Below the pieces are notes generated by a model, which saw nothing but the letters and a program-made list of their open reading frames with translations, had not been told where the DNA came from and did no database searches. A DNA stretch of 64,000 bases, taken from contig JAIOIK010000036.1 of the NCBI GenBank assembly GCA_019912545.1, positions 5,159 through 69,158 on the forward strand, given 5' to 3'. Origin of the DNA: Ignavibacteria bacterium (GTDB taxonomy: Bacteria; Bacteroidota; Ignavibacteria; Tepidaquicellales; OLB5). The position numbers were made by a program, and so were the translations under genes. Positions 27,497 to 63,650 of the stretch are shown here, piece after piece; the stretch's first letter is position 1, and every line of letters starts with the position of its first letter.

Positions 27497-27569
27497 GCGG
27501 GAGTAACTCAGTTGGTAGAGTCACAGCCTTCCAAGCTGTTGGTCGCGAGTTCGAGTCTCGTCTCCCGCT
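27497..27569 (+). tRNA. tRNA-Gly (TCC)
   Basis: Acceptor GCGGGAG/CTCCCGC, anticodon arm ACAGC-CTTCCAA-GCTGT, T arm GCGAG-TTCGAGT-CTCGT. Confidence 0.9.
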
Positions 27570-27573
27570 CAGT

Positions 27574-27811: not shown

Positions 27812-27846
27812 GATTCACAAAAAGAAAAATTTAATTTTACATACTA

Positions 27847-28008
27847 ATGGCAAAAGACGGCAGACTAATTTTAACTCTTGAATGTACTAACTGCAAAAAC
27901 AGGAATTACAGTACAACAAAGAACAAGACAAAGCACTCAGGCAGAATAGAACATAAGAAATTCTGCAGGTTCTGTAATAAACGTACTTTACATAAAGAAA
28001 CCAAGTAA
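27847..28008 (+). CDS. rpmG: 50S ribosomal protein L33
   Basis: 53-aa ORF below the track cutoff: [53 protein letters not shown], with two CxxC pairs. Confidence 0.9.
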
Positions 28009-28009
28009 T

Positions 28010-28082
28010 ACGTCAGTGGCTCAATTGGTAGAGCAGCGGTCTCCAAAACCGCAGGTTGGGGGTTCGAGTCCCTCCTGACGTG
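28010..28082 (+). tRNA. tRNA-Trp (CCA)
   Basis: Acceptor ACGTCAG/CTGACGT, anticodon arm GCGGT-CTCCAAA-ACCGC, T-loop TTCGAGT. Confidence 0.9.
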
Positions 28083-35090: not shown

Positions 35091-35107
35091 TTAAAATCTA
35101 AAATCAT

Positions 35108-38100: not shown

Positions 38101-39385
38101 AGCACATTTAATGGTAAATGATGGTCAAATGGTTGATAAGAACCATGTACTATATGAATGGGATCCATACAACTCAGTGATTGTTGCTGAACATACAGGA
38201 ACTATAAGATACCTTGACCTTAAAGAGAATGTAAGTTATGCTGAAGCTCCCGATGAAACAACAGGACATATACAGAAGGTTGTTACAGAATCTAAAGATA
38301 AGACACTCTCCCCTACTATTCAAATTGTTGATTCAAAGGGCGACCTAATGAGTCAGTATATCATCCCGGCACACGCACATTTGCTTGTAAATGATGGTGA
38401 GCCTACATTTGCCGGACAGATACTTGTTAAGATCCCCAGAGATACCGGTAAAACCAGGGATATAACAGGCGGTCTGCCAAGGGTAACAGAGCTCTTCGAA
38501 GCAAGAAGCCCCAACTCTCCATCAGTTGTAACTGAAATTGACGGTATAGTTGAGATTGGTTCGCTTAAGAGAGGTTCACGTGAGGTTAAAGTTAAGACAA
38601 CTGATCTTTCGATCGAGAAAAAATATATGATTCCGGTTGGCAAGCATATACTTGTAAGAGACGGTGATTATGTTAAAGCAGGCGAAGCGCTCTCAAGCGG
38701 CTCGGTTGACCCGCATGATATTCTCAGAATTAAAGGCGTTGCAGATGTACAGGCATACCTTGTTAATGAGATACAGGAAGTTTACAGAATGCAGGGTGTG
38801 AAGATCAACGATAAGCATATTGAAGTTATAGTAAGACAGATGCTTCAGAAGGCAAGAGTAATCGATTCAGGTGATACCATGTTCCTTGAAGGAGATGTTG
38901 TCCACAGATTTAAATTCCTTGTGGAAAACGAAACATTAAGGAACAAGATCATGGTAATGGATAAGGGCGATTCCAATAAAGTGAAGATGTATGATATGCT
39001 GGATAAGAAGAAAGTTAAGGAGCTTAATGCTGAATTAAAGAAAAAAGGCAAAGCACTGATCGAATTCAGAGATGCTAATCCGGCTATTGCAAATCCGGTG
39101 TTGCTGGGTATTACTCAGACTTCATTAACAACAGACAGCTTTATTTCTGCCGCATCATTCCAGGAAACTACGAAGGTGCTAACTGATGCAGCTATTGAAG
39201 GCAAGGTTGATACACTCCAGGGACTGAAAGAAAATGTTATAGTTGGACAGCTTATCCCCGCCGGTACAGGCCTGAAGGCTTACAAGAATCTTATTGTTGT
39301 AAGGAAAGATGAAGCAGTACCAGAAGAAAAACCAAAGAAAGCAAAGAAAAAGAAAAAAGTAAAAGAAACTGCTGATGCCGAGTAA
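35108..39385 (+). CDS. rpoC: DNA-directed RNA polymerase subunit beta'
   Basis: 1425 aa with the Zn-binding [14 protein letters not shown] and catalytic [12 protein letters not shown] motifs. Confidence 0.98.
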
Positions 39386-49891: not shown

Positions 49892-52330
49892 TTACTTAAT
49901 TAACACCATCTTCTTACTCTGGACGAATTCGCCCGCTTCTATTCTATAAAAGTATACGCCTGATGCATAATTTGAGCCATCGAACTTCGCATCATAATAC
50001 CCTGCTTTTTGGAAATCATTCACAAGCGTTTTGACTTCCCTGCCAAGAATATCATAAATCTTCACAATTACTTTTACATCGTTTGGCAATGCATATTTAA
50101 TTGTGATTACGGGGTTAAACGGATTGGGATAATTTTGCGATAAGCTGAAAACATCCGGCACATTATTCAAAATATTCTTGCTGCGTTCTGAATTTTTGCC
50201 AAATACTTTCTTTATATCACTATTAACAATCCCAATATGTTCAAGCAGGTTATGAGGAGTTTGATTCACTACAACTTCCCTTAGTGTTCTTTTTTGTTCA
50301 AGGATCAACTTAGAGATTTCATTGCCATTATTTGCATCATCAATTAATTTACTGATGTTTTTTTCTTGCTTTGTTCTTTCATTTTCAAAGTTATTTTTGA
50401 TAACCTGCTTTACAGTTTCTTTTTGCTCTTTCGTCAATTTAGAATTCCTATCGCCGCCATCTCCCATTTCACTACCACCGGAAAGGCTATCAAGCAAATA
50501 CACTGCCATATAATCCCAATGAGCTACTAAAGCCTCGTATGAATACGGGTTCTCGTTTATGATCTGCTGAAACCCGGTCAAAGCAGAAGCATACTGCCGG
50601 AGGTTTACCTTACATTTCTGAACATGATAGTTGCAGCTTCTAACAAGCGCCGGATTATTTGAATTATTAATAATAACATATAATAGATAGTCTTTTAACG
50701 CAAGGATTCCTGCTTCCGTAGTATCCGTGCTTATTGTTGCCGTATAAAGTTTTGAAACTGCATCAATTATCTGTAAAGAATCAGGCGGATTATCCAAAAT
50801 CCTAATACACATGTTTATTACGTTCGGATAATTTCTTTTCCTCATTTCCATTCCTAACGAATCATATACATTGAGCGGATTACCATTTTTTATCGCAATA
50901 GAGTCTATAATACCATCACCAAAATTTGCCGATGCAAAGCCATCTTCATACTGATTATTGGTACAACTGTACGGAACAAAATTGAATTCCACTTCTTCTC
51001 CCCCGTACCAGTACACAGATTTGACAGGGTCAACGGGATTTTGATTTACTTTAAAACAATTGAGTTTATTATCCAAATCGATGTTTATTTCATTTTGAGG
51101 AAATATCCCGGATAAATGGCTGCTTCCTGAATTGCCGGAAATATTAAGTATGTTATAGCCTGAGTTCATGAAAAAATATGAATTATCAACATATACATTA
51201 CATGAGCCACTACCGGAATTATTTAAACTATTTAAACCAAGAAGATAATCACCCTGGTAACTCATATCAATTACAGTTCCGCTTCCTTCGTTGATACCGT
51301 AAGTATAATCACCAGTGGAAAAAATAACATTATTATATAAACCGATATTGCACGCAAGGGCATTAACGCCATAGTGAAAACCGTTTATGGTATTATTTTG
51401 AATAACACCGCCTGAAACATTCACTATATTTATAGCAGTAGATGAATTTGTATTGGTAGATGTAAATGTATTGCCAGTACAAATAAGCGGAATCTGGACA
51501 CCGCCTGAAGCAATTATGCTGATAGCCGGAAGCTGTGTAGAGCCCAAATTAAAATGATTATTGTTTGAAATATTCAGATTAAAATCACGGGGCAGCCTGC
51601 CAAATGCAGCAAAATAACCAATTCCTCCGCCGTTTTCAGGCGGCGTTACTGAGGAATTCCTGATATCGGTTAAGGTACAGTTAGCTATACTGAGCAAGTA
51701 TGATGTATTATAGTAACCGCCAATATCAGTATTATAAATTTTCACCTGTGCACAATTCTCAAAGGATATTGTCGGTGCATTAAGGCCTTCCATGTATAAA
51801 TTTACCCTGCTTTGATCGCCAGTCAGTTCACCGGACTGGAATGATCCTCCGTTCATGATAATTCTGCCTACATGCGTAAAAGTTATATTGTTCGAAGGGT
51901 ACAGGCTAATATTCTTACCTCCGTTATAAACCGTGTTATAACATTCATAAGCAGGCGTCATGTTAAGATTTTCGTCATAGGCAAGCGTACCTCCATCAAC
52001 CATTACAGGTGCAAGTTTATATAACTTACCTTCACCGGGCAAATACCAACCCAGATCGATCCATGGAGATGCACTTTTATCGAATGTTGTAACAACAGTA
52101 TTATTTTCAAGTTCTACAATTTTCCAATTTGTGAAATATTGTAGATCTGACTGCTTGAAGCTTACTTTAATGTTACGCCTGCCGCCGTTTTCATTAATGT
52201 CAGGGCGGAATGGTGAGCATCTCCTGTTAACTAGCATAAAATAATTTGAATACGGCTCTTCAAATTTTTTGAATACCGCAGCCTGTAAATACCTGCTGGC
52301 GACAGGTTCCTCGATATCGGAAGGCTGCAT
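49892..52330 (-). CDS. Parallel beta-helix repeat protein with a T9SS C-terminal sorting domain; likely the C-terminal part of a larger frame interrupted by TAG at 52409-52411
   Basis: No signal peptide and no RBS at ATG 52330. Contains N/G/I-rich beta-helix-like repeats. C-terminus is NYPNPFNPVITIKY...GVYFYRI...KKMVLIK. Confidence 0.7.
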   Translation of the reverse strand: MQPSDIEEPVASRYLQAAVFKKFEEPYSNYFMLVNRRCSPFRPDINENGGRRNIKVSFKQSDLQYFTNWKIVELENNTVVTTFDKSASPWIDLGWYLPGEGKLYKLAPVMVDGGTLAYDENLNMTPAYECYNTVYNGGKNISLYPSNNITFTHVGRIIMNGGSFQSGELTGDQSRVNLYMEGLNAPTISFENCAQVKIYNTDIGGYYNTSYLLSIANCTLTDIRNSSVTPPENGGGIGYFAAFGRLPRDFNLNISNNNHFNLGSTQLPAISIIASGGVQIPLICTGNTFTSTNTNSSTAINIVNVSGGVIQNNTINGFHYGVNALACNIGLYNNVIFSTGDYTYGINEGSGTVIDMSYQGDYLLGLNSLNNSGSGSCNVYVDNSYFFMNSGYNILNISGNSGSSHLSGIFPQNEINIDLDNKLNCFKVNQNPVDPVKSVYWYGGEEVEFNFVPYSCTNNQYEDGFASANFGDGIIDSIAIKNGNPLNVYDSLGMEMRKRNYPNVINMCIRILDNPPDSLQIIDAVSKLYTATISTDTTEAGILALKDYLLYVIINNSNNPALVRSCNYHVQKCKVNLRQYASALTGFQQIINENPYSYEALVAHWDYMAVYLLDSLSGGSEMGDGGDRNSKLTKEQKETVKQVIKNNFENERTKQEKNISKLIDDANNGNEISKLILEQKRTLREVVVNQTPHNLLEHIGIVNSDIKKVFGKNSERSKNILNNVPDVFSLSQNYPNPFNPVITIKYALPNDVKVIVKIYDILGREVKTLVNDFQKAGYYDAKFDGSNYASGVYFYRIEAGEFVQSKKMVLIK

Positions 52331-52408: not shown

Positions 52409-54523
52409 CTAAATGTATGAATGCCGGTTGGCATTATCAAAACTCATTAATGTAGGTCCCCATGCAGTAAGTTTTTGATTGATGCTTTTTATCTTATCCC
52501 ATTTTTGCTGGCCATAAGCATTAGTTAAGCGGGGATTTAATGTTAACGGCTGTGGTGTCTGCTGTCCGGAAAAAGGATTTGAAGTACTACATGGAACCGG
52601 ATTCACCAGGCCCCTTGCATAATTACCGGATCCTAAGCAGCCAAATCCACCGTACCAAAAATACAATGTCCCTTTTGCTCCATAGGTCACAGGTAATAAT
52701 GTTGTCATTTCCATCTCTTCATTAGTTGGCTCTCTTAATGCCTCCTCTCCGGTTGTGTACCATAAATGTGTTTGAGGCATATTAATATAGCTGATATTGT
52801 TCATTTTAGATAACGTATCCATCGTTTTTACATACCATGTAAATTGCCCTTTTTTAGTGTGAATATTAGTGCCTGCCGCATCAAGATGTTCCTGCAGCCA
52901 GCTTTCATAAACCGCAGGCGAAAACGGTTCTCCCAGCCTTCCTTCTGATGTATTATAATTGCTTAATGGCAGCGTATTAGGTACTCTTGAATCATTGTAA
53001 TTTGTGCCAGCTATTACACCTGTAAGCGCATATGGCTCTGAAAGAACCTGGGATTCGCCAACTCTGTTTATAAGATATTCAGTAACGTGCCGGGCGCTTA
53101 CTTTATTGTTGCCTACATACTCATATGGCAGATGCAGCAGATACTGCTGTAAATTAACCATTGTCATTAAAGAAAGATTCGGATTGCCGGAATACAGTTT
53201 CAATTTCTGGCTTACATATGCCATGCACGGTATATGGTTAAACTCAAATTCTTCTATGTAAAACTTTAAAGGCGAATTGTTAGTATTTCCAAGTGATGCC
53301 TCCCATTGGAGCCAGTTATCATATTGTACCCAGTTTTGATTAAGCGGGTTATTACTCAAAAGATCATTAGCCACATCATTGTCAACTCTTACATAATCTA
53401 TCCACATATTGCATGTTCCGTACCAGTAAACCTTTATATCCATTTTGTTATCGCCATCAGTTGGGTAGTTTCCGCGTGAATTAAATGCCCAGCCGCCATC
53501 ATTTGGGTTAAATGCATTTGTTGTGTATGGATATACTTTATCAATTATTAATTCGTTATCTAAACCCCAAAAATTAAATTCTTCTTTGTAATTTCCATCA
53601 TAGTTTCCAGTCGTATTTTTAAAATGTTTTGCTCTTAATATTACGCTTTTAATTGTATTCCCGTTATAGTTTATTACATCAATACGGCAAATAGGCTCTT
53701 CGTAATTTACCGGATTATCAATAAAAATTTTATCTGCCCTAATGCTGGGTTTAATATACCAGTCATATACATTATCACCCGGCGCCTGTCCAATAGGGCT
53801 TCGTGTATTGCACTGTTCACTGTTTGTCATTAGCCTTCTTACCACAAAACCCTGCCCGTTTGGCGCATTAAACGGGTCAACCAGGCATCGCCTTACCCAC
53901 TGGTTATTGCCGTATTGAGAATTATCCGGCCAATCTCCGCCGCTTTGTCCGGTTACATCATGGTTATTAAAAGCGTAAAACCAAAGGTCAGGGTTTAAGT
54001 TTGTTGCTTCACACTGGTAATCGCTCCGCTGCCCGAATGCAAGCTGATCTATCTTAGGCCGCTGCATTAAAGTCCGCATATTATTCTGCAGATTAATACC
54101 CAGCCTGCCCGTAACAACACCGGAGTATGTATTATATGTGTTGTATAGGTTATCAACAGGGTTTTGGGCATACCAATCCCACCCTGAAGAGTTAGCATCG
54201 TTATACCTGTCAACTCCCGCATATTTATGCCAGACATTTAATCCAAGATCCGAAAGGTTGTTATAAGTTAAATCATGTGCACAATCCATTGCCCCTAGAA
54301 GATATTCATTGCTGATATTTCCTTCAGGAGGCGGAAACATCCGTATAGAATTTTGTGAGCTAAAGCCTGATGCGGTGATATTTTGTTGGGTTGATGGGGT
54401 ATAATTACGGAATGCGAATGCAATCGTCATTATCCCCAGAATTACCGAAATTGTCAGTCTTAGCCTGATCTTTTCGATAAGTTCTGTTTTTCTGCCCGTG
54501 GCAGATTTCATTTCTTTCAACAT
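52409..54523 (-). CDS. Signal-anchored secreted protein (possibly glycoside-hydrolase-like); likely the N-terminal part of the same frame
   Basis: N-terminal TM/signal anchor LTISVILGIMTIAFAF. The protein has no T9SS tail. It ends at a TAG that is in frame with the downstream ORF. Confidence 0.7.
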   Translation of the reverse strand: MLKEMKSATGRKTELIEKIRLRLTISVILGIMTIAFAFRNYTPSTQQNITASGFSSQNSIRMFPPPEGNISNEYLLGAMDCAHDLTYNNLSDLGLNVWHKYAGVDRYNDANSSGWDWYAQNPVDNLYNTYNTYSGVVTGRLGINLQNNMRTLMQRPKIDQLAFGQRSDYQCEATNLNPDLWFYAFNNHDVTGQSGGDWPDNSQYGNNQWVRRCLVDPFNAPNGQGFVVRRLMTNSEQCNTRSPIGQAPGDNVYDWYIKPSIRADKIFIDNPVNYEEPICRIDVINYNGNTIKSVILRAKHFKNTTGNYDGNYKEEFNFWGLDNELIIDKVYPYTTNAFNPNDGGWAFNSRGNYPTDGDNKMDIKVYWYGTCNMWIDYVRVDNDVANDLLSNNPLNQNWVQYDNWLQWEASLGNTNNSPLKFYIEEFEFNHIPCMAYVSQKLKLYSGNPNLSLMTMVNLQQYLLHLPYEYVGNNKVSARHVTEYLINRVGESQVLSEPYALTGVIAGTNYNDSRVPNTLPLSNYNTSEGRLGEPFSPAVYESWLQEHLDAAGTNIHTKKGQFTWYVKTMDTLSKMNNISYINMPQTHLWYTTGEEALREPTNEEMEMTTLLPVTYGAKGTLYFWYGGFGCLGSGNYARGLVNPVPCSTSNPFSGQQTPQPLTLNPRLTNAYGQQKWDKIKSINQKLTAWGPTLMSFDNANRHSYI

Positions 54524-54714: not shown

Positions 54715-56166
54715 TTACTTAACTAGCAGCATCTTTTTTGTGCTTAAAATTTTTCCATCAATATATAATGAGTAGAAATATACTCCTGAAGAATAATTAC
54801 TGCCATTAAAATTAACTTCATAAGTTCCTGCATTCTGTTTTTGATTTACAAGTTCTGATATTTGTCTGCCCTGAATGTCATATACAACTATCTTTAAATC
54901 TGATAATCTGTTAATCTGAAATCTGATAATCGTAGCTGGATTAAATGGATTCGGGTAATTTTGCTCAAGCTTAAACTCTTTTGGGATTTCTGAGCTTATT
55001 TGATTAACCGGGAAAAAAACGGTTGTATCACCTCCAGTTGTTGTATGAATACCCGAGTTTACAGCATATGCCCACCCATTTAATTTGTTTACAAATTTGC
55101 TATGATAATAATTAAAAATATGAATACTAGTATCAGGTAGCTGAAAACCCCAATTTATTCCGCCATTTGTTGTCTTGTATATTATTCCCTTAATACCAGC
55201 GTAATTAATTTGACCACCTACACCCCAGATTGTATCCCTGTTGACATTAGAGAATTTACCCATAAGACTGTTAACCAGGTTACCACCTGAAGGCAGTGTT
55301 TGGGCAACCCAGTTTAACCCGCCATCGGTTGTTTTTTTCATTGTTCCATATGATTTCCATCCGGTTAAACTATCTGAAAAATACATATCTGTAAAACCTG
55401 TATCATTCAGGCTGAACCAGTTCATTCCGCTATTGGTAGTTTTAAATAAACGACCAGGTGCAGATGAAAATTGCCCGGCAAAACCTATTCTTGAATTAAA
55501 CATATATATATGGTCGGGGTTTAATCCTGGAAGTGTTACCTGCCGTACCCAGTTCAACCCGCCATTTGATGTGAAAAATACACCGCCGGAAGATGGGCTG
55601 CTCATTGCAAACCAAATTGTATCTTCATTCAATACATGAATGTCATCCTGGTATGTATCAAAAGGAGTATTAACGTTATTCCAATTTACTCCCCCGTTCG
55701 TAGTTTTAAGGATTGAAAAATTAAAATTATCTTCGATATATCCTCCTACGTAACCAGTATTCTGATTCAGGAAAAATAAACATGTAAAAAGACTGGTATC
55801 AGTATTATTATAAATAATGTTCCAGTTATTTCCGCTGTTTGTTGTTTTAAGAATTTTAGGGTAATCGTTTACTGAAAGTCTTGATGTTATTGCATAACCT
55901 GTTAAACTGTCTGTGAATGTCATATCAACTATTGTTCTTCCTCCCAGATCAGGCAAAAACTGCTGCTGCCAGTTGCCTATCATAACATCACTAAAGTTAA
56001 AACCGATTATAAAAAATAATATGGAAAGATAGAAGATAAATGAAGAGACCCATTCGTTTCGCTCAGGGCAGATTTTATCAGGTTTAAAAAGTTTGTAAAG
56101 TTTACTATGTTTTGAGTGAGTTGAGTGACTTGTATCAGCAGAATATTTTGGTTTTTCCGGGTGCAT
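54715..56166 (-). CDS. BNR/Ycf48-like propeller protein with an N-terminal signal anchor and a T9SS C-terminal domain (paralog A)
   Basis: N-terminus MHPEKPKYSADTSHSTHS... followed by TM helix FIFYLSILFFIIGF, then T(T/S)N(G/S)G(x)NW repeats. C-terminus is NYPNPFNPATIIRF...GVYFYSL...KKMLLVK. Confidence 0.85.
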   Translation of the reverse strand: MHPEKPKYSADTSHSTHSKHSKLYKLFKPDKICPERNEWVSSFIFYLSILFFIIGFNFSDVMIGNWQQQFLPDLGGRTIVDMTFTDSLTGYAITSRLSVNDYPKILKTTNSGNNWNIIYNNTDTSLFTCLFFLNQNTGYVGGYIEDNFNFSILKTTNGGVNWNNVNTPFDTYQDDIHVLNEDTIWFAMSSPSSGGVFFTSNGGLNWVRQVTLPGLNPDHIYMFNSRIGFAGQFSSAPGRLFKTTNSGMNWFSLNDTGFTDMYFSDSLTGWKSYGTMKKTTDGGLNWVAQTLPSGGNLVNSLMGKFSNVNRDTIWGVGGQINYAGIKGIIYKTTNGGINWGFQLPDTSIHIFNYYHSKFVNKLNGWAYAVNSGIHTTTGGDTTVFFPVNQISSEIPKEFKLEQNYPNPFNPATIIRFQINRLSDLKIVVYDIQGRQISELVNQKQNAGTYEVNFNGSNYSSGVYFYSLYIDGKILSTKKMLLVK

Positions 56167-56287: not shown

Positions 56288-57715
56288 TTATTTCAATAAT
56301 ATCATCTTCTTTGTTTCTGCGTATAATTGGTTTGTTTTATCATCTGTTACTTCCATTCTGTAAAAATAAATTCCCGAAGCGTAATCACTTCCAGAAAAAT
56401 CAACATCATAAGTTCCTGCATTTTGTTCTTGATCGATCAAATCAATAATGTGTTTCCCTGTAACATCAAAAACCGATAATCTTATTTTTGTTCTGTTATT
56501 TCTTATTTGATATTTGATATTTGTGTTTGGGTTGAATGGATTAGGATAATTTTGGAATAACTTAAACTCATTCGGTATTTCTGTGCTTAAAGGAACAACG
56601 GGTGTAAAAAACGTATCATTGCCGCCTGTTGTTGTATGAATACCAGAACTATAATTATCATAAGCCCAGCCATTGCGTTTATTAACAAAATCAACCAAAT
56701 AATACTCGCCAATATGGATCGATGTATCAGGTAACTGGAATAACCAGTTATTACCTCCATTGCTTGTATATAATAATATTCCTCTGAATTGTAAGTTTAG
56801 TAACAATGCTCCTCCAACACCCCAGATTGTGTCCTTGTTTATATTATCAAAAGCTCTAATGCCGCTTGTTATAATATTGCCGCCAAATGGTAGTGTTTGT
56901 CTGGTCCAGTTCATACCTCCATTGGTCGTTTTTTTCATCCAACCCATTGACATCCAGCCTGTTAAGCTATCTGTAAAATACATATCGGTAAAACCTGTAT
57001 CATTCAGACTGAACCAGTTCATACCGCTGTTTGTAGTTTTATATAAGCGTGGTGCTCCCGAAAACTGACCTGCAAAGCCTATTCTGGTGTTATACATATA
57101 AATGTGGTCAGGATTTGCGGGTCCAAGACTTGCCTGCCGTACCCAGTTCAACCCGCCGTTTGATGTGAAAAATACACCGCCGGAAGAGGGGCTGCTGACT
57201 GCTAAATATATCGTATCTTCGCTTATAATCTGCATATCATCAATTTCAAAAAAGGGATCAGGAGTATTTAAAGAGAACCAATTAATTCCGCTATTTGTTG
57301 TTTTAACTAATTGAGTACTTCCATTGTATAAATAAGCTCCGCAGCAATATCCCGTGTTCGTATTAATAAATTTAATTTTATTCATTCCCGGAAACTGCGC
57401 AGTCCCGCTAAACTGTACAGACCAATCATCTCCTCTGTTCGTCGTTCTAATAATAAATACAGTATCATTTTGTGTTGTATAGGGCGTCACAGCCCAACCG
57501 TTTAAACTATCAATAAAACATATATCTGATATTGACCTTCCATTCAGATTGGGCAAAAACTGCTGTTGCCAGTTGCCAACCATAACATCTGAAAAGTTGA
57601 AGCCGATTATGAAAAGTAATATGGAGAGGTAGAAGATGAAGGAAGAAAGTGTATTGAGTGCGGAGTGAGTTGAGTCTGATGAGTCGGGGCTGTATTTTGG
57701 GTTTTCGGGGTGCAT
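56288..57715 (-). CDS. BNR/Ycf48-like propeller protein with an N-terminal signal anchor and a T9SS C-terminal domain (paralog B)
   Basis: N-terminus MHPENPKYSPDSSDSTHS... followed by TM helix FIFYLSILLFIIGF. Same architecture as paralog A. Confidence 0.85.
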   Translation of the reverse strand: MHPENPKYSPDSSDSTHSALNTLSSFIFYLSILLFIIGFNFSDVMVGNWQQQFLPNLNGRSISDICFIDSLNGWAVTPYTTQNDTVFIIRTTNRGDDWSVQFSGTAQFPGMNKIKFINTNTGYCCGAYLYNGSTQLVKTTNSGINWFSLNTPDPFFEIDDMQIISEDTIYLAVSSPSSGGVFFTSNGGLNWVRQASLGPANPDHIYMYNTRIGFAGQFSGAPRLYKTTNSGMNWFSLNDTGFTDMYFTDSLTGWMSMGWMKKTTNGGMNWTRQTLPFGGNIITSGIRAFDNINKDTIWGVGGALLLNLQFRGILLYTSNGGNNWLFQLPDTSIHIGEYYLVDFVNKRNGWAYDNYSSGIHTTTGGNDTFFTPVVPLSTEIPNEFKLFQNYPNPFNPNTNIKYQIRNNRTKIRLSVFDVTGKHIIDLIDQEQNAGTYDVDFSGSDYASGIYFYRMEVTDDKTNQLYAETKKMILLK

Positions 57716-57831: not shown

Positions 57832-57857
57832 CAAAAAAGACGCTTTTGCAAGCGCCT
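57832..57857 (-). terminator. Rho-independent terminator after the kamA-like gene
   Basis: On the minus strand, GGCGCTT-gcaa-AAGCGTC followed by T6. Confidence 0.8.
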
Positions 57858-57886
57858 TTTAAGTTTTTCTCCTCTTTTAAAACGAT

Positions 57887-59017
57887 TTACTGCAATACCG
57901 CTACCGGTATCTTCTTCCTTGATTTCTTTTTTGGCAGCTTGTCTATATTCCTGCCGCGCTTGAGCACAATATGCTCTTCCTGCACATCGGGATATTCGAA
58001 TACTTCGTTCTTGTAATTGCGGAGTATTATTTTCTCCTTATCGCGTGCTAAAACATAATCCGGCAGTAACGGAATTTTCCCGCCGCCGCCCGGCGCATCA
58101 ATTACAAATTGCGGTACTGCAAGTCCGCTGATATGCCCGCGTAGGTTATCCATTATTTCCAAGCCTACATCAATTGGTGTGCGGAAATGATTTGCCCCCT
58201 TGGTCAGGTCTGCCTGGTATATGTAATACGGCCTTACTCTTATTGCAAGCAGCTTTTTCATAAGCTCCTTCATTACCTCAGGGTCGTCATTAACTCCCTT
58301 CAGCAGTACTGTCTGGCATCCTACAGGCACTCCGGCATTAACAAGCATTTCGCATGCCTTAGTACTCTCCGGTGTTATCTCCCATGGATGGTTAAAATGC
58401 GTGTTTACGTAAATCGGGTGATATTTCTTTATCATTTCGCAAAGCTGCGGCGTAATTCTTTGCGGCAGAACGCACGGCATCTTAGTTCCAAGTCTAATGA
58501 TCTGTATATGCGGTATCTGGCGAAGCCTCGCAAGCACTTTTTCAAGCATTGCATCGGTCAGCATAAGCGGGTCACCACCGGAAAGTATCACATCGTTGAT
58601 CTCCGTATGAGTCTCGAGGTAATTAAATGCAGCCTCAAGCTCGCGCATATTGATCTTGCTGGAATCCCCCACTTTTCTTTTTCTCGTACAAAAGCGGCAA
58701 TAAAGCCCGCACTGGCTGGTAGTTAAAAACAGTGCACGGTCAGGGTAACGGTGAGTAATATTGGGAACAGGGCTCATTTCCTCCTCGTTTAACGGGTCTT
58801 CTGCTGCATCGATATCATAGAGCTCTACCTCTTCGGGCACTGCCTGAAGCCAGATAGGGTCTCCTGGATATCTGATCAGGCTGAGATAATAAGGATTTAT
58901 CCTTGCCTGGAAGAAATCGTCAAGCTTTTCTGCAACTTCCCTGTTGATTGAGAATTTCTCGACAAGCTGATCTACTGAGCTAATGCTTTGTTTTAGCAGC
59001 TGTTGCCAGAGTTCCAT
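57887..59017 (-). CDS. KamA-family radical SAM enzyme (lysine 2,3-aminomutase-like)
   Basis: 376 aa with the CGLYCRFCTRKR (CxxxCxxC) cluster motif, ILSGGDPL, and an LIRYPGDPIWLQAVP N-terminus typical of KamA/AblA. Confidence 0.88.
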   Translation of the reverse strand: MELWQQLLKQSISSVDQLVEKFSINREVAEKLDDFFQARINPYYLSLIRYPGDPIWLQAVPEEVELYDIDAAEDPLNEEEMSPVPNITHRYPDRALFLTTSQCGLYCRFCTRKRKVGDSSKINMRELEAAFNYLETHTEINDVILSGGDPLMLTDAMLEKVLARLRQIPHIQIIRLGTKMPCVLPQRITPQLCEMIKKYHPIYVNTHFNHPWEITPESTKACEMLVNAGVPVGCQTVLLKGVNDDPEVMKELMKKLLAIRVRPYYIYQADLTKGANHFRTPIDVGLEIMDNLRGHISGLAVPQFVIDAPGGGGKIPLLPDYVLARDKEKIILRNYKNEVFEYPDVQEEHIVLKRGRNIDKLPKKKSRKKIPVAVLQ

Positions 59018-59124
59018 AAAATATTGTCCTTGTTTAGTTTTTGGATTCCCGTCCTGCTCTTATGGCAGAGCTAAGCGGGTTTCACAGGGCACCGCGCATC
59101 ACTTTGTGAGCCGGAAGCCTTACC

Positions 59125-59613
59125 TCAGGAGGCTTTCTCCTTAAGGTATTTGCGGTAGATGTAAAGGTCATCCCCGTCTCTGTAAAAATCTTTGATGATA
59201 GTCTGCTCGTCATAGCCGTTTTTCGTGTAGAACTTCCGTTCATTTTCGTATTCGGCTTTTCCGCTCGTTTCTATCAGTATAATCTTGCCTCCGCTTTTTG
59301 TCAGATCCTCTTCCATATGTTTCACCAGTTTGCTTCCGGTTCCCTTTCCGTGAATGCGGAAATCTACGGCTATCCAGTATAAGTCATACGTGTGATCTGT
59401 CAGCGGCCTTTTTCCATAGCAAATGTAACCTATAGGCTTGCTGCTGTTTTCATCTTCGCTTACATAAATAATATAATCAGTCTGCTTTTCATCGTTTAAA
59501 TATATGTCAATGAGCTCCATTGCAACTTTGATCTCTTCTTCATTAAAGTGTCCTGTGCCTTCAAGAATATCCCTGATCTCATCTCTGTCGCTTCGTATTA
59601 ACTTCCTTATCAT
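59125..59613 (-). CDS. GNAT-family N-acetyltransferase
   Basis: 162 aa with a HGKGTGSKLVKHME acetyl-CoA-binding motif-A-like segment. Its position next to kamA parallels ablB/yodP. Confidence 0.8.
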   Translation of the reverse strand: MIRKLIRSDRDEIRDILEGTGHFNEEEIKVAMELIDIYLNDEKQTDYIIYVSEDENSSKPIGYICYGKRPLTDHTYDLYWIAVDFRIHGKGTGSKLVKHMEEDLTKSGGKIILIETSGKAEYENERKFYTKNGYDEQTIIKDFYRDGDDLYIYRKYLKEKAS

Positions 59614-59624
59614 TTCCTTTATTC

Positions 59625-59700
59625 ACAGACAGGAAGTCTGTGCTACTATTTTTCTTTCACAGCAGAAATGCCTGCCTGCTGCAGGCAGGTCTGTACTACT
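59625..59700. repeat. Two tandem hairpin units in the GNAT/ATP-grasp spacer
   Basis: CACAGAC-aggaa-GTCTGTGCTACT, then CACAGCAGAAATG-CCTGCC-tgctgca-GGCAGG-TCTGTACTACT. Both units end in GTCTGTRCTACT. Confidence 0.7.
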
Positions 59701-59736
59701 AATTAAAATCCGCAATCAACAATCCAAAATCGTAAA

Positions 59737-60804
59737 TTATTTGACTCCCCACCGCTTGAGCGAAAAACCGATAATCTGCTGGATCAGATAGCTATATTCC
59801 CAGCCATGTGCCTTTGCGCTTCGGGTAAACCCGGTATCCTCGGGTACGTCGCTTGCAATATCTGGATTCGGATTCATCTCAAGCACATACGGCACGCCGT
59901 CTTTCAATCTCATATCAACTCTTGCATAATCAGCTGCTCCAAGAAGCCTGTAAACTTTTTTGGCAGTATCCTGTATGACTTTTACCTCGGCATCACTTAA
60001 ATTCTGTGCCGGGCAAACTGCCTTTGTATTTTCAAATTCAACCGTCTTGTACATCCATTTGCTGTTATAGCTGATTATCTTGGGATAATCATCCGGCAAT
60101 CCCGTAAAATCTATTTCACTTATGGGGAAAGTGATCGGTTCTTCATTTCCCACAACCGAAACGTTTATTTCCCTGCCTTCGATGTATTCTTCAACAAGCG
60201 CAGGCTGTTTGTGCTCATCAAGCACATATTCAATTCGTTTACGAAGAGCAGCTTCGTTAGTAACTACCGATTCGTTTGTAATGCCTATGCTTGCATCTTC
60301 CCGTGATGGCTTCACTATCATGGGGAACTTATGGCCGTTAAGATGAAAGCTTGATGTACTTGTAACAAAATGTTTCGCAGTCGGTATTCCGTTTTGATTC
60401 AGAATCGATTTCACCAAAGGTTTGTTTAATGCCAGACCCAGTGTAAATGCCCGTGAGCCTGTGTATGGGATCTTAAACAACTCAAATAATCCCGCAATGT
60501 TCATTTCCTGTGTCGGATCGCCGTCAACGCTTTCGCAAAGATTAAAAATAATATCCGGTCTATTTTCGTTCAGTTCCGTGATCAGCTTATTTATATCCAG
60601 CGCAACAGGAATTATCTTTGTATTATGTTCCAGCGGAGCCAAAGCGCGTTCAACGCTTTTTACTTCATCCAGAACGCCATATTCGCTCATATCGATCGCT
60701 TCATCAAGGGAATCAATATCAACATCCGTGCCCTCATAGATCGGTCCCTGCGCATATTGCACCGGGTCATTGAATATAATCGATATGTTAAGTTTTTTAC
60801 TCAT
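59737..60804 (-). CDS. ATP-grasp ligase, D-Ala-D-Ala-ligase-like family (paralog 2)
   Basis: 355 aa with FNLCE..IAGLFELFKIPYTGS, MIVKPSREDASIG, VEEYIEGREINV and LEMNPNPD. It lacks the GEDG motif of bona fide Ddl. Confidence 0.8.
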   Translation of the reverse strand: MSKKLNISIIFNDPVQYAQGPIYEGTDVDIDSLDEAIDMSEYGVLDEVKSVERALAPLEHNTKIIPVALDINKLITELNENRPDIIFNLCESVDGDPTQEMNIAGLFELFKIPYTGSRAFTLGLALNKPLVKSILNQNGIPTAKHFVTSTSSFHLNGHKFPMIVKPSREDASIGITNESVVTNEAALRKRIEYVLDEHKQPALVEEYIEGREINVSVVGNEEPITFPISEIDFTGLPDDYPKIISYNSKWMYKTVEFENTKAVCPAQNLSDAEVKVIQDTAKKVYRLLGAADYARVDMRLKDGVPYVLEMNPNPDIASDVPEDTGFTRSAKAHGWEYSYLIQQIIGFSLKRWGVK

Positions 60805-60845
60805 TTATTATTGCCAGCGAATCTGTATCTGTGTTCCTCTTTTTG

Positions 60846-60886
60846 CGAGGAGCGAAGCGACCTGCCTCCAGCAGGCAGGCGAAGCA
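60846..60886. repeat. CCTGCC-tccagca-GGCAGG hairpin flanked by direct GCGAAGC repeats
   Basis: GCGAAGC occurs at 60852-60858 and 60879-60885, bracketing the hairpin at 60861-60879. Confidence 0.65.
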
Positions 60887-60937
60887 ATTTTATTAATTGA
60901 TCTTCTATTTATTTTTTGCTTTTTTACTTTTGCCTTT

Positions 60938-62020
60938 TTACTTACCCAAACCGTATCTTTCGATTGCCCCGTTCAAAACAGTCTGAATGAGTCCATCATA
61001 ATCAATTCCAACTTCCCTTGCCGCTTTTGGAAAACATGAATTATCATCCGGATTAGGAAGAACTCCCGGCAGCGGGTTTATTTCAATTATATGCGGATTC
61101 TCATTCCTGTCACACCTAACATCCATTCTCGCCCAGTCTTTGATACGCAATGCGTTATAAGCATTCTTACAGATCTCTTCTATTTTCAATCTCAGCTTAT
61201 CACTGATAACTGCCGGACATGTAAATATATCCAGCTTACTTTCTCTTGTATCAAAAAACCATTTGACCTCATATGAGTAAATTTTGGGAAAATCAGCAGG
61301 GAGGCATTCAAGATTTATCTCAACTATCGGTAAAACCCGCAGCTTATCACCATTTCCGATGAGTGCAACGGTAAATTCCCTTCCGTCAAGAAAATCCTCT
61401 ATTATAGAGTGCTGGCTGTAATCCTGTTTAATTCTTGTTATTTCGCGATTTAAGGATTCTTTGTCGTAAACAACGCTACTATTATATATGCCTTTTGATG
61501 AGCCTTCGTGCAAAGGCTTCACAAAAGCGGGATATTTGACCTTTGGGTATCCGTTTACAATGCTATCGGTTATGAAAAAACCCGGATTTGGCACTCCGTA
61601 GTACGAAAGGATCTCCTTACAGCGTGATTTATCATGGCAATTGCCAATTGTTATGGGATCGCTTGCAGTGTAGGGAATATTAAGCATTTCAAGCATTGCG
61701 GGAATGTGTGACTCCCTCGACGCTCCGCCAAAACCTTCGGCCATATTAAAAACTATGTCCGGCTTTTCGGTTCTCAGTCTTTCAAAAGCATTTTCATCAG
61801 CTTCTATTCTGATAACTTCGTGCCCTGCTTTCTTAATTGCGCTTTCAACTGCAGAGATGGTTTCTTCATCATCCCACTCAGCATACTCATCACTAAGACG
61901 GCTGGAATAATTGCTGACCAAATTCTCGTCAACATATTTTTCCTGCTGAACTTTTTTTTCCTGTCCTTCGGAAATCGGCTCAGCTTCTTTTTTTATATTG
62001 TAAGTAAATCCTACGCGCAA
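60938..62020 (-). CDS. ATP-grasp ligase, D-Ala-D-Ala-ligase-like family (paralog 1)
   Basis: 360 aa with FNMAEG..IPAMLEMLNIPYTAS, AFVKPLHEGSSKG, IEDFLDGREFTV and IEINPLPG. Confidence 0.8.
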   Translation of the reverse strand: MRVGFTYNIKKEAEPISEGQEKKVQQEKYVDENLVSNYSSRLSDEYAEWDDEETISAVESAIKKAGHEVIRIEADENAFERLRTEKPDIVFNMAEGFGGASRESHIPAMLEMLNIPYTASDPITIGNCHDKSRCKEILSYYGVPNPGFFITDSIVNGYPKVKYPAFVKPLHEGSSKGIYNSSVVYDKESLNREITRIKQDYSQHSIIEDFLDGREFTVALIGNGDKLRVLPIVEINLECLPADFPKIYSYEVKWFFDTRESKLDIFTCPAVISDKLRLKIEEICKNAYNALRIKDWARMDVRCDRNENPHIIEINPLPGVLPNPDDNSCFPKAAREVGIDYDGLIQTVLNGAIERYGLGK

Positions 62021-62308
62021 AAAAATATTTTGCTTATCTCCTTACTTATTTTTTTATTGAGTGTTAATGAACGTTAAAAATATTTTTAACAGTATTTTAA
62101 CAATCAAAATTCAACTGCAAATATAACATTCTATCACTCATAGTCAATAGGTAAACGCAAAAAAATGAAAAATATTTTTTTAGAAAAATTTTTTCAGGTT
62201 TCACTAAAATATTTTTAAGAAATAAAAATTTTTTTGTTAGACAATTTTATTTTTACCTGCATCCTGAACAGGATGCAATTGCCGCTTGTTCACAATATTT
62301 TTGTGTTG

Positions 62309-62347
62309 CCACGACCTTCCCGCCTGCGTCGGGCAGGTAGGTCGTGG
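62309..62347. repeat. Nested GC hairpin (outer CCACGACCT/AGGTCGTGG, inner CCTGC-gtcgg-GCAGG)
   Basis: Read directly from the sequence, within the 550-bp divergent spacer. Confidence 0.65.
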
Positions 62348-62573: not shown

Positions 62574-63650
62574 ATGTTCGATAAACTAAAAAAGGTTACT
62601 TCCCGGTATCACGAAATAGCAGATTTGCTTAGCAAACCCGATGCAGTTAACGATCAGAAGGAATACCGCAGGCTTTCAAAGGAATACTCTGACCTAACTG
62701 AGATTGTTAGTAAATACGATGAGTATGGCAAGACTAAGAGCCGCCTGGAAGAAAACAAAAAACTTCTGTATGAAACCAGCGACGTTGAAATGAAGGAGCT
62801 TGCCTCGGCTGAACAGGAAGAGCTCCAGCAGAAGTTTGATAAGCTTGAAGCGGAGATTAAGGAACTTCTGGTTCCCAAAGACCCAAATGATTCCAAGAAC
62901 GCCATACTTGAAATCCGCGCCGGCACAGGAGGCGATGAAGCCGCGCTATTTGCAGCAGATCTATACAGAATGTACTCCCGCTACGCAGAAAAAAAAGGCT
63001 GGAAGATGGAAACTGTTACTTACAACGAGTCATCAGGTTTGGGCGGACTCAAAGAAGTCATCATCAACGTTACCGGAAACGATATTTACGGCGCTTTAAA
63101 ATATGAAAGCGGTGTACACCGCGTGCAGCGCGTACCCGAAACCGAAACACAGGGCAGGGTCCATACATCAGCCGCCTCGGTTGCTGTTTTGCCGGAAGCA
63201 GATGAAGTTGATGTTGAAGTTAATTCCGTTGATCTTAAAATAGATGTGTTCCGCTCGGGAGGCGCAGGCGGGCAGAATGTAAACAAAGTTGAAACTGCTA
63301 TCAGGATAACACATATTCCAACCGGAGTTGTTGTTCAGTGCCAGGATGAACGCTCACAGCTTAAGAATAAGCAAAAAGCTATGAAAGTACTCCGCTCCAG
63401 ACTGCTTGAAGCAGAAATTGAAAAGCAAAATCAGCTTGTATCGCAAAAGCGCAAACTGATGGTGGGCTCAGGTGATAGAAGCGATAAGATCAGAACATAC
63501 AACTTCCCGCAGAACCGGCTGACCGATCACCGTATAGGACTCACAATGTATAACCTTTCGCTGATTATGGAAGGCGATCTTGACGAACTCTTCGAAAAAC
63601 TTAAAATAGCTGATAGAGCCGAAAAGCTTTCCGAAGAAACCCATGCTTAA
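62574..63650 (+). CDS. prfA: Peptide chain release factor 1
   Basis: 358 aa with SGGAGGQNVNKVETA (the GGQ motif) and a QRVPETETQGRVHTS (PxT-type) tripeptide region. Confidence 0.95.
   Translation: MFDKLKKVTSRYHEIADLLSKPDAVNDQKEYRRLSKEYSDLTEIVSKYDEYGKTKSRLEENKKLLYETSDVEMKELASAEQEELQQKFDKLEAEIKELLVPKDPNDSKNAILEIRAGTGGDEAALFAADLYRMYSRYAEKKGWKMETVTYNESSGLGGLKEVIINVTGNDIYGALKYESGVHRVQRVPETETQGRVHTSAASVAVLPEADEVDVEVNSVDLKIDVFRSGGAGGQNVNKVETAIRITHIPTGVVVQCQDERSQLKNKQKAMKVLRSRLLEAEIEKQNQLVSQKRKLMVGSGDRSDKIRTYNFPQNRLTDHRIGLTMYNLSLIMEGDLDELFEKLKIADRAEKLSEETHA

Follow-up and report, generated by a model that had tools for sequence, protein, structure and literature searches.

A conserved four-gene cassette of Ignavibacteria whose parts most likely build a small beta-lysine-containing molecule

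The window, by which we mean the whole stretch of 64,000 nucleotides analysed here, carries four consecutive open reading frames on its minus strand. In transcription order they encode two Ddl-like ATP-grasp amide ligases, AG1 (60938-62020; 360 aa, TTG start) and AG2 (59737-60804; 355 aa), a small GNAT acetyltransferase (59125-59613; 162 aa) and a KamA-family radical SAM/PLP aminomutase containing the motif CGLYCRFC (57887-59017; 376 aa). This cassette had been proposed in a sequence-only reading of the same DNA, and the list of open reading frames together with Pfam and NCBIfam models bears out all four genes and their families. The terminator said to close the set 3' of the KamA gene is real as well, with its coordinates shifted slightly to 57835-57860 (minus strand; 11-bp stem, 4-nt loop and T-run; z = -2.5). 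At the other end, a predicted sigma-70-type promoter on the minus strand (62120-62147; TTGACT, a 16-nt spacer and a TG-extended TATATT) lies about 95 nt upstream of the AG1 start. It is the second-best match in the promoter scan and sits in the sole strongly conserved block of the aligned prfA-AG1 intergenic region. In 47 related loci, some of them distant and flanked by other genes, this 37-nt block recurs immediately 5' of AG1 with no more than eight substitutions.

How firmly do the four genes belong together? Their order is kept in every one of the 70 related Ignavibacteria loci with a long enough contig, the remaining loci being broken by contig ends, so that the co-conservation implied by the earlier proposal holds across the survey. 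Flanking genes vary between lineages while the four-gene order holds. The strict order and the single conserved promoter upstream of AG1 argue that the genes are one functional unit, a predicted operon tightly conserved in Ignavibacteria. Strong purifying selection acts on the cassette across the 70 complete loci, and KamA is more conserved than RF1 in the same 19 loci (90.5% against 84.1%). The cassette is present in at least 126 species-level genomes of this single class, whose isolate names point to sludge, groundwater, peat and many further non-saline habitats. A search for an exporter, a precursor-peptide open reading frame or a defence-system signature found none of them.

Long, structured gaps had been taken for a peculiarity of this operon. 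That view does not stand, as the median gaps across the 70 loci are 13.5, 42.5 and 81 nt; neighbouring genes touch or overlap in many lineages, and long gaps are typical only for close relatives of the window. The CCTGCC..GGCAGG hairpins noted in two of the gaps do exist, as the GC-rich palindromes CCTGCCTCCAGCAGGCAGG between AG1 and AG2 (60861-60879) and CCTGCCTGCTGCAGGCAGG between AG2 and the GNAT gene (59671-59689), but the repeat search shows them to be copies of a dispersed, REP-like element that is unconserved even in close relatives, where the AG1-AG2 gap holds other palindromes or none. The 19-nt palindrome recurs at 8176-8194 of the window, identical to the 59671-59689 copy and with 0 occurrences expected by chance; further copies lie at other positions in related genomes, such as downstream of kamA in loci L023 and L024. 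This distribution identifies a dispersed repeat instead of a cassette feature, and on this comparison the gap hairpins are REP-like palindromes or insertions and not operon signals. The AG2-GNAT gap holds a second small hairpin (59624-59642), and upstream of the promoter a long GC-rich hairpin (62309-62347) consists of an inverted repeat with a variant of the palindrome at 62319-62337; no conservation of the latter hairpin was found in relatives.

The gap between GNAT and KamA (59018-59124), which had been credited with merely a weaker structure, is in fact the sole cassette gap with conserved sequence and structure. The alignment of relatives delineates a kamA leader on the minus strand with its core at 59037-59087, in the order hairpin P1, CUGUGAAAC, hairpin P2, GGAAUCC-AAAAACUAAAC-AAGGAG and AUG. 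P2 is variable in sequence; all 13 sequences examined fold into it despite their differing stems. The motif occurs once per locus, solely upstream of kamA, and is clade-specific, being limited to loci with a KamA at least 90% identical; it has no match in Rfam.

The aminomutase matches Radical_SAM and LAM_C in Pfam and passes the family model TIGR00238 (316 against a cut-off of 199). The best-scoring specific model is AblA, yet its cut-off is not reached (457 against 525), and the glutamate-type and EpmB models fall further short (429 against 650 and 239 against 369). Aligned to PDB 2A5H (E 3.9e-120), the protein retains CxxxCxxC, YQaDL (D293), iDAPGGGGK (D330, K337) and the equivalent of R134, while the cysteines of the C-terminal zinc region are absent. 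In the solved lysine 2,3-aminomutase two aspartates bind the amine of the lysine side chain; the protein retains both, which makes beta-lysine the likely product. In line with the assumption of the sequence-only reading, the enzyme is likely lysine 2,3-aminomutase-like, of the lysine type rather than the EpmB or glutamate type, where the substrate and the stereochemistry of the product are read from pocket residues only.

Both ligases match Dala_Dala_lig_C (PF07478; AG1 1.1e-33, AG2 1e-31) and are paralogs of one another, with 33% identity over 322 aa (E 4e-56). Ddl joins two small amino acids via an acyl-phosphate, and AG1 and AG2 share with Ddl and VanA full-length homology, the fold and all ATP/Mg and transition-state residues, retaining K97, K144, E180, K215, R255, D257, E270 and N272 of E. 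coli DdlB. The best fold matches of the predicted AG1 structure (pLDDT 88.4) are all Ddl or VanA enzymes. As noted from the sequence before, the motifs IPYTxS, GRE and ExNPxP are present while GEDG is absent. The ligases further differ from DdlB by H63->E and Y216->W, noted for AG1 with its intact ATP/Mg residues, by S150A, G276D and L282G in AG2, whose catalytic residues are intact, and by an extra N-terminal insertion, the N-terminal alignment to Ddl (E15 equivalent) being uncertain. On the Ddl subfamily model of NCBIfam AG1 scores 170 and AG2 135, both below the cut-off of 243, and orthologs are found in DPANN archaea and Thermoplasmatota. The scores, the changed substrate positions and the archaeal orthologs mark these as no ordinary Ddl enzymes, in line with the earlier view from motifs that they are unlikely to serve as Ddl in the cell wall. 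The extra acidic residue at position 63 would suit a cationic substrate.

The acetyltransferase matches Acetyltransf_1/7 only as a generic GNAT, and an assignment to AblB was rejected (16 bits against a cut-off of 205). Compared over its full length with the GNAT domain of an AG2-type::GNAT fusion it shows 42% identity; with the corresponding domain of an HDAC::GNAT protein, whose gene adjoins another cluster of this kind, the figure is 36%. By these similarities it is a dedicated subfamily fused to, or encoded beside, these ligases; this association, together with the single fusion to an HDAC-type deacetylase domain, points to reversible amine acetylation. Its closest solved relative, PDB 2R7H (E 5e-30, residues 3-155 aligned), bears as its only functional label the depositors' 'putative D-alanine N-acetyltransferase of GNAT family'. 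No paper on 2R7H was found, so that it supplies no functional information, and 'D-alanine' in its name may stem from neighbouring Ddl-like genes.

The same parts have been fused independently in other phyla and in Archaea. KamA::ligase fusions populate more than 100 protein clusters from Thermoplasmatota, Methanocellales, Woesearchaeota, Nanoarchaeota, Spirochaetales and Deltaproteobacteria; ligase::GNAT and ligase::ligase fusions occur as well, and one archaeal locus holds the whole system in two genes, KamA::AG and AG::GNAT. Every KamA fusion carries an AG1-like ligase domain, whereas ligase::GNAT fusions and stand-alone partner ligases are always AG2-like. The position of D293 is an aspartate in all 111 KamA fusion proteins in which the motif was found. 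Sister clusters pair the ligases with a peptidase of family S58 (DmpA/BapA) or S51 (cyanophycinase/PepE), the latter adjoining an AG::KamA fusion in one locus, which fits a peptide product being turned over. Certain clusters hold ligases and KamA without GNAT, suggesting that acetylation is optional, and the number of ligases per cluster ranges from one to three, so that different lineages may make different products. In Myxococcota, no KamA is encoded near the tandem-ligase relatives; the ligase family is thus not always beta-lysine-dependent.

What could such an operon make? Our preferred reading, to which we assign a probability of roughly 55%, is a short assembly line that works without ribosomes: transcribed from a near-consensus promoter, the four genes would yield a small intracellular N-acetylated beta-lysine peptide. 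From the observed gene families, intact catalytic residues, lysine-type pocket, co-conservation and fusion pattern we infer the order of the steps, the partner building blocks and the site of acetylation, as well as how large the product is and what it does. KamA would turn free L-lysine into beta-lysine, which the AG1-type ligase would then join to a second building block by an ATP-dependent amide bond. The AG2-type ligase would add a further amide bond, and the small GNAT would acetylate a remaining free amine. The resulting N-acetylated peptide of two or three units would be kept inside the cell, most plausibly as a compatible solute or a polyamine-like, charge-balancing molecule; for an envelope role no supporting evidence was found. 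By chemical logic only, the scheme resembles the synthesis of NAGGN, in which the bifunctional GNAT and ATP-grasp enzyme Ngg acts with AsnO, and the mammalian synthesis of NAAG: an acetyltransferase and an ATP-grasp enzyme yield an accumulating intracellular N-acetylated di- or tripeptide, with GNAT and ligase fused in Ngg as in relatives of the cassette. However, the NAGGN and NAAG ligases are RimK-like, with neither an aminomutase nor a beta-amino acid involved, while those of the cassette are Ddl-like and accompanied by a KamA-type aminomutase.

A different outcome of the same chemistry would be a polymer, with the ligases chaining beta-lysine units, either by themselves or together with a partner residue, into a poly-beta-lysine, cationic or in part acetylated, that would serve as a nitrogen or carbon reserve, similar to cyanophycin, or as a nucleic-acid-binding polycation. 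The peptidases beside the ligases in sister clusters, the variable ligase number, the acidic residue at position 63, which is compatible with a cationic chain, and the HDAC::GNAT neighbour, suggestive of charge tuning via acetylation, all speak for it, and cyanophycin synthetase and cyanophycinase likewise combine ATP-grasp peptide bond formation with a dedicated peptidase. We nevertheless regard a polymer as doubtful: the Ignavibacteria operon has no peptidase gene, the ligases lack a primer-binding or extra domain such as the Mur-ligase-like domain of cyanophycin synthetase, two distinct conserved ligase types are unnecessary for a homopolymer, and there is no sign of a polymer. The closest folds all belong to ligases of dipeptides or depsipeptides, and to our knowledge Ddl enzymes do not act as polymerases. 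Beta-lysine might instead be attached to a macromolecule, for example to a lysine or the C-terminus of a protein, which would make the ligases an ATP-grasp counterpart of EpmA/EpmB or of RimK tailing. In EF-P beta-lysylation a KamA-family enzyme is indeed coupled to an ATP-dependent ligase joining its product to an amine, the strong conservation and constitutive-looking promoter suggest housekeeping, and prfA adjoins the operon in the window and its close relatives. But this linkage is gone in more distant Ignavibacteria, neither a linked efp gene nor any other co-conserved target was found, the EpmB score is far under its cut-off, EpmA is a lysyl-tRNA-synthetase paralog and not an ATP-grasp enzyme, the nearest solved folds act on small substrates, and the module also occurs in Archaea, which use aIF5A instead of EF-P; we consider such a modification unlikely.

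That the operon makes plain N-epsilon-acetyl-beta-lysine as an osmolyte, its ATP-grasp genes being unrelated neighbours such as spare Ddl copies, is in our judgement quite improbable. The likeness to AblA/AblB of methanogens and yodP-kamA of Bacillus subtilis, which the sequence-only reading had invoked, survives as a loose analogy: KamA and GNAT share an operon, following the principle of ablA/ablB (Pflueger et al., 2003, as cited in PMC3543383), and KamA fits AblA best, with its lysine-binding aspartates, PLP lysine and Fe-S cysteines. Yet KamA stays under the AblA cut-off and has no zinc region, the GNAT belongs to another, shorter subfamily than AblB, and the ligases, present in all 70 loci and fused to KamA or GNAT in many lineages, are obligatory partners, which in certain clusters accompany KamA even where GNAT is missing. 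We hold it very unlikely that the locus is a specialised-metabolite cluster for an exported, antibiotic-like beta-lysine peptide. While antibiotics such as streptothricin, viomycin and blasticidin S draw on beta-amino acids made by 2,3-aminomutases, and several dipeptide antibiotics are built by ATP-grasp ligases, no transporter, resistance, regulator or tailoring gene is co-conserved with the cassette, and its spread through a single class, in at least 126 species-level genomes and under purifying selection, is unlike that of an accessory cluster. Least credible of all are variant cell-wall ligases making an unusual peptidoglycan dipeptide: full-length homology to Ddl and the Ddl fold are offset by scores under all Ddl cut-offs, the altered substrate positions, the fusions to KamA and GNAT elsewhere and the AG1/AG2-like ligases of Thermoplasmatota and DPANN archaea, which we do not know to make peptidoglycan.

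The earlier reading knew of no pathway that couples two ATP-grasp enzymes to the beta-lysine pair, and we could not find one in the literature open to search either, within which the four-gene pathway thus appears undescribed. The near-consensus promoter, the conservation of KamA above that of RF1 and the non-saline habitats fit a housekeeping role better than that of a classic salt-induced osmolyte. As the same parts turn up as fusions in many bacteria and archaea beyond this class, they most likely build a small beta-lysine-containing molecule.

What can be said of the four minus-strand genes at 57887-62020 as a unit? The open reading frames lie where the sequence-only reading had put them, and Pfam and NCBIfam searches confirm the families that it had proposed: two ligases with a Ddl (D-alanine--D-alanine ligase) C-terminal ATP-grasp domain, AG1 (60938-62020, 360 aa, TTG start) and AG2 (59737-60804, 355 aa), a small acetyltransferase (GNAT, 59125-59613, 162 aa) of the generic Acetyltransf_1/7 kind, and a KamA-like radical SAM protein (57887-59017, 376 aa) with Radical_SAM and LAM_C domains. 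The ligases are paralogous, as had been claimed (33% identity, E 4e-56), and the expected intrinsic terminator, an 11-bp stem followed by a T-run, closes the set at 57835-57860 on the minus strand. A sub-threshold Rfam match to the Salmonella sRNA STnc40 (57833-57901, minus strand; 33.9 bits against 45) overlaps this terminator and is almost certainly a mere hairpin-plus-T-run similarity. Further downstream, three minus-strand proteins (49892-52330, 54715-56166 and 56288-57715) carry a Por_Secre_tail, the C-terminal sorting domain of type IX secretion; two of the three (483 and 475 aa) are paralogs in tandem, and for a neighbouring protein of 704 aa (52409-54523) Pfam gives no match. Elsewhere in the window, four tRNA genes cluster at 27091-28082 on the plus strand, with rpoB (1262 aa) and rpoC (1425 aa) a few kilobases on (31302-39385, plus strand).

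A relative of AG1 is encoded in 126 genomes of a scan that covered one genome per species. Onto 80 loci, all from Ignavibacteria or from MAGs labelled Chlorobi or Bacteroidota, together with four further loci, we mapped the four window proteins. The two ATP-grasp genes, the GNAT gene and kamA are co-conserved: the order AG1-AG2-GNAT-KamA is identical in all 70 loci with sufficient contig, and every apparent absence of a gene coincides with a contig end. The flanks, in contrast, vary by lineage, with unrelated genes on both sides outside the close relatives; the divergent prfA (62574-63650) adjoins the cassette only in the latter, and a functional link to it is rejected on that ground. Mean identity to the window proteins is 67% for AG1, 75% for AG2, 62% for GNAT and 83% for KamA, and where prfA is present as well, in 19 loci, the conservation of KamA exceeds that of release factor 1 (90.5% vs 84.1%). 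Median intergenic gaps within the cassette are 13.5, 42.5 and 81 nt, the genes abutting or overlapping in several lineages. Judged by its comparative genomics, the cassette is one conserved unit.

The spacer between prfA and AG1 holds a single strongly conserved block, ACCTATTGACTATGAGTGATAGAATGTTATATTTGCA, which contains a near-consensus, extended -10 promoter at 62120-62147 on the minus strand (TTGACT and a TG-extended TATATT separated by 16 nt, written TTGACT-16-TGtTATATT). The promoter sits within about 45 nt of conserved sequence (62115-62160), and the block, allowing up to 8 substitutions, directly precedes AG1 in 47 loci, some of them distant and with different genes alongside; the TTG start of AG1 and its AAGGAG Shine-Dalgarno sequence are conserved as well. 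This single conserved promoter block makes the co-transcription of all four genes as one transcript likely. On the upstream side of the -35 element, conservation continues for about 20 nt, and this stretch, TTTTCATTTTTTTGCGTTTACC, may be a UP element or an operator.

The gaps within the cassette had been singled out for their GC-rich hairpins, an observation that stands only in part. Palindromes of the form CCTGCCTGC-N-GCAGGCAGG are present in the AG1-AG2 and AG2-GNAT gaps, but they are dispersed, and in close relatives they are absent or replaced. The 19-nt GC-rich palindrome CCTGCCTGCNGCAGGCAGG occurs in the window at 8176-8194, 59671-59689 and 60861-60879, with a variant at 62319-62337, the first copy lying 50 kb from those of the cassette, and, intergenic there too, it recurs in two related genomes on the downstream side of kamA (L023:6038; L024:12115 and 16028). 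The AG1-AG2 gap of close relatives is not conserved and either has GC-rich palindromes of another sequence (CCCCTCTCC..GGAGAGGGG) or lacks them; the palindrome family that relatives bear at these positions is a different one, CCCCTCTCCTTTGGAGAGGGG. By this distribution, the gap palindromes are REP-like dispersed insertions. A riboswitch or attenuator in these two gaps is rejected, given the dispersed palindrome, the unconserved AG1-AG2 gap and the lack of an Rfam match, Rfam 15 having returned nothing meaningful at E<=1 for the whole cassette or at E<=10 for the kamA leader alone.

The third gap, between GNAT and kamA, which had been described as only a weaker, partial structure, is a different case. 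It contains a conserved leader (59018-59124, core 59037-59087, minus strand) with the layout hairpin P1, invariant CUGUGAAAC, hairpin P2, GGAAUCC-AAAAACUAAAC-AAGGAG and AUG, which recurs in L005-L020, L001 and L023 and is common to about 19 genomes whose KamA is at least 90% identical. The stem of P2 varies in sequence between genomes and always folds, as read from per-sequence folds; RNAalifold on a MAFFT alignment of the leader found a long-range pairing that is invariant, and no covariation. Each locus has a single copy of the motif, in the GNAT-kamA position only, and lineages with a GNAT-kamA gap of 8-45 nt are without it. The leader is a candidate cis-regulatory RNA that may control the translation of kamA.

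Which reaction does KamA catalyze? It passes the cut-off of the KamA radical SAM family (TIGR00238, 316.5 bits vs 199.2) and matches the Clostridium lysine 2,3-aminomutase 2A5H with E 3.9e-120. Kept are the Fe-S motif CxxxCxxC, as CGLYCRFC, and the equivalents of the PLP lysine K337 and of D330 (both in iDAPGGGGK), of D293 (YQaDL) and of R134 (CTRkR). In 2A5H, D293 and D330 bind the epsilon-amine of lysine and R134 its carboxylate; in glutamate 2,3-aminomutase both aspartates are replaced, by basic or neutral residues. The possibility that KamA is an EpmB or a glutamate-type enzyme, raised as a test of the sequence-only reading, loses ground on the specific models as well: the ranking is AblA (457 bits), glutamate (429), arginine (355) and EpmB (239), with none above its cut-off (TIGR03820, AblA/KamA, 456.7 vs 525.4; TIGR04368, glutamate 2,3-aminomutase, 428.8 vs 650; TIGR03821, EpmB, 239.3 vs 369.3). 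Likewise, no EF-P or EpmA-type tRNA-synthetase Pfam family was found beside the cassette among the genes called in the loci examined. KamA stops some 40 residues short and lacks the C-terminal zinc-binding CxCxxC region, and the position of C268 in the clostridial enzyme is not Cys. Since it combines lysine-type residues with a best but sub-cut-off AblA score and the loss of the zinc region, we treat KamA as a distinct lysine-type subfamily with beta-lysine as its probable product.

The two ligases present a similar picture of a retained catalytic core and altered substrate positions. The Ddl C-terminal ATP-grasp domain is found in both (AG1, 1e-33; AG2, 1e-31), both align with the Ddl models over nearly their full length, and the best 25 NCBIfam matches listed for each are all Ddl or Van models, with 16-17 weaker matches per protein beyond these. 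An AlphaFold model of AG1 built from 61 diverse sequences (pLDDT 88.4) has only Ddl and VanA structures as its best PDB matches, with TM-scores of 0.70 (query) and 0.80 (target); an earlier model from a shallow 10-sequence alignment was unusable (pLDDT 52.9). Against the Ddl models NF002378 and TIGR01205, however, AG1 reaches 170.2 and 149.8 bits and AG2 135.5 and 130.1 bits, below the cut-offs of 243 and 245.65. In an alignment with E. coli DdlB, for which a sequence identical to 2DLN was used, the ATP/Mg and acyl-phosphate residues K97, K144, E180, K215, R255, D257, E270 and N272 are kept in AG1, AG2 and ten orthologs of each, so that both should be active ATP-dependent amide ligases. The D-Ala-binding positions are altered in both: Glu takes the place of H63, as it does throughout the members examined of the wider family, Trp that of Y216, and the GEDG loop is replaced; further substrate positions differ in AG2 (S150 to A, G276 to D, L282 to G) and in AG1 (L282 to C). 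Because every curated Ddl cut-off is missed and Thermoplasmatota and DPANN archaea also have both ligase types, the two are unlikely to act as ordinary cell-wall Ddl enzymes, as the sequence-only reading had surmised, citing the missing GEDG signature.

The GNAT is not AblB, the beta-lysine N-acetyltransferase, as judged by its profile score (TIGR03827, 16.1 bits vs a cut-off of 205.1) and its length (162 aa vs a criterion of about 270 aa), and its closest solved relative, 2R7H, carries only the functional label 'putative'. It is 42% identical over its full length to the GNAT domain of a ligase::GNAT fusion, and 36% identical to that of a deacetylase fusion described below. In some archaea an unrelated second GNAT type (Acetyltransf_3) occupies the same slot, and some clusters are without a GNAT; from the second type in the same slot, there seems to have been more than one recruitment of acetylation.

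Gene fusions in other organisms link these enzymes. An exhaustive search with an AG1 profile yielded 1,042 clusters at 50% identity with E<=1e-30, and among the best 150 representatives 41 are at least 560 aa long. By domain content the long proteins are of three kinds: ligase::ligase tandems, KamA::ligase and ligase::KamA fusions, and ligase::GNAT fusions. A search seeded with one KamA::ligase fusion returned mostly such fusions among the 120 matches listed, with named sources in Thermoplasmatota, Methanocellales, Woesearchaeota, Nanoarchaeota, Spirochaetales and Deltaproteobacteria. The KamA::ligase fusion stands alone in a Spirochaetales locus (L090), beside a second ligase in Woesearchaeota (L085), beside a ligase and a GNAT in Methanocellales (L086), and beside two ligases in a deltaproteobacterium (L087) and in L094. 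In L093, whose fusion protein is similar to those named Thermoplasmatota, a KamA::ligase gene is followed by a ligase::GNAT gene, the whole system being contained in two genes. Within the fusion proteins, the KamA domains share the model profile of the window KamA and score 350-456 bits on TIGR03820, likewise below cut-off, and the position of D293 is Asp in all 111 fusion proteins in which the motif was found; in one ligase::KamA protein (P0194), with Gln at this position, the glutamate model scores slightly above AblA. Another protein with this reverse domain order keeps both lysine-type aspartates (L092:2341-5196) and is followed by a gene for a Peptidase_S51, of the cyanophycinase/dipeptidase E (PepE) family.

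The fusion partners are specific at the level of sequence similarity, KamA being joined to AG1-like and GNAT to AG2-like ligases. All eight KamA fusions that were tested have a ligase domain nearer AG1 (163-281 bits) than AG2 (103-202 bits), in four of four ligase::GNAT fusions the ligase domain is nearer AG2, and the ligase gene adjoining each KamA fusion is nearer AG2, the one exception being L087, where the first of its two additional ligases scores higher with AG1. In L091, a 761-aa protein in which an HDAC-type deacetylase is fused to a GNAT (L091:10587-12872) is encoded directly after a KamA::ligase fusion and another ligase; with such a neighbour the acetyl group could be removed again, which suggests a built-in reversible acetylation.

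Two further groups of homologs lie outside this pattern. Tandem ligase::ligase proteins of about 700 aa, of the same superfamily, are widespread in Myxococcota. In the two tandem loci examined, L088 (Anaeromyxobacter dehalogenans CP000251, ~2.76 Mb) and L089 (a Bacteriovoracia MAG), they are followed by a gene for a Peptidase_S58, of the DmpA/BapA family, with no KamA nearby; the Myxococcota tandem ligases and S58 may be a sister pathway making and degrading a different peptide. A plasmid collection yielded only distant single AG1 homologs (31-35% identical), on rhizobial symbiosis plasmids, namely pNGR234a of Sinorhizobium fredii NGR234 (L095) and 12 others. Two of the regions were examined; there the homologs are surrounded by IS elements, with a CapA-family gene adjoining in NGR234 and an MFS transporter gene near in S. 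medicae, and no KamA or GNAT is annotated beside them; these homologs are not informative for the cassette.

How does the cassette compare with known systems? The pairing of KamA with a GNAT had been read as the logic of ablA/ablB, the genes for N-epsilon-acetyl-beta-lysine synthesis. This is indeed the nearest described system, but the cassette misses the AblA cut-off and its GNAT falls outside AblB, so that the analogy is a loose one. Closest in logic are the synthesis of NAGGN and NAAG, in which an acetyltransferase and an ATP-grasp ligase yield an N-acetyl peptide, and EpmB/EpmA, which combines beta-lysine with a ligase; in each case the ligase family is not that of the cassette. A full-text literature search, covering papers outside subscription-only access, found no published description of a KamA with Ddl-like ligases, in agreement with the earlier statement that no described pathway couples two ATP-grasp enzymes to the beta-lysine pair. 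Two ATP-grasp proteins with a GNAT could also recall a microviridin/graspetide RiPP cluster; this is rejected, as the ligases are Ddl-type and no conserved small precursor-peptide ORF is found upstream of or within the cassette. An anti-phage defence system is rejected too, the only PADLOC match being to viperin, through a marginal radical-SAM similarity (E 1.7e-4).

The fusion pattern suggests a pathway of two coupled stages, for which, from the ligase activity onward, we infer the following steps. KamA and AG1 would convert lysine to beta-lysine and couple it, through an amide bond, with a second building unit; since Ddl uses the same substrate twice, another beta-lysine is one candidate, with some other amino acid equally possible. 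AG2 and GNAT would then form a further amide bond and acetylate a free amine. The acidic residue at the position of H63 would suit a substrate with an additional ammonium group, and the ligase-peptidase pairings in sister clusters (S58, S51) fit a peptide that is made and then degraded. In the loci examined, the operon comes with no sign of an exporter, a precursor peptide, a resistance gene or a defence system, and a small intracellular product, an N-acetylated beta-lysine peptide, is therefore favoured. As to its role, the Woesearchaeota locus L085 adjoins MscL and Na+/H+, Na+/Ca2+ and CorA transporters, a weak hint of ion or osmotic homeostasis. Many genomes with the cassette have isolate names that suggest non-saline habitats (sludge, groundwater, peat); together with the near-consensus promoter and the strong conservation, these are weak pointers that fit a constitutive role better than a classic salt-induced osmolyte.

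To our knowledge, beta-lysine has only a few known contexts in bacteria and archaea: as the precursor of N-epsilon-acetyl-beta-lysine, which is an osmolyte, as a modifier of EF-P, as a fermentation intermediate and as a building block of antibiotics. Our analysis leaves room, with a probability that we put at roughly 40%, for a further one, in which the cassette would be the form taken in Ignavibacteria by a module widespread among bacteria and archaea, present also in small-genome DPANN archaea, Thermoplasmatota and Methanocellales, that would make an unrecognised class of beta-lysine peptides: a KamA-coupled, Ddl-like beta-lysyl amide with one or two further ligations and reversible N-acetylation, serving a constitutive polyamine-like or osmoprotective role rather than that of an accessory antibiotic. 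The module itself is widespread, cleanly delimited and backed by independent fusions. Whatever its product, the analysis corrects a likely mis-annotation of these ligases. If the proposal is true, it would establish a new family of small beta-amino-acid peptides, provide a role for the large 'Ddl-like' family whose 1,042 clusters are now annotated as D-Ala-D-Ala ligases, and give a function to the KamA homologs of anaerobic bacteria and of archaea with very small genomes.
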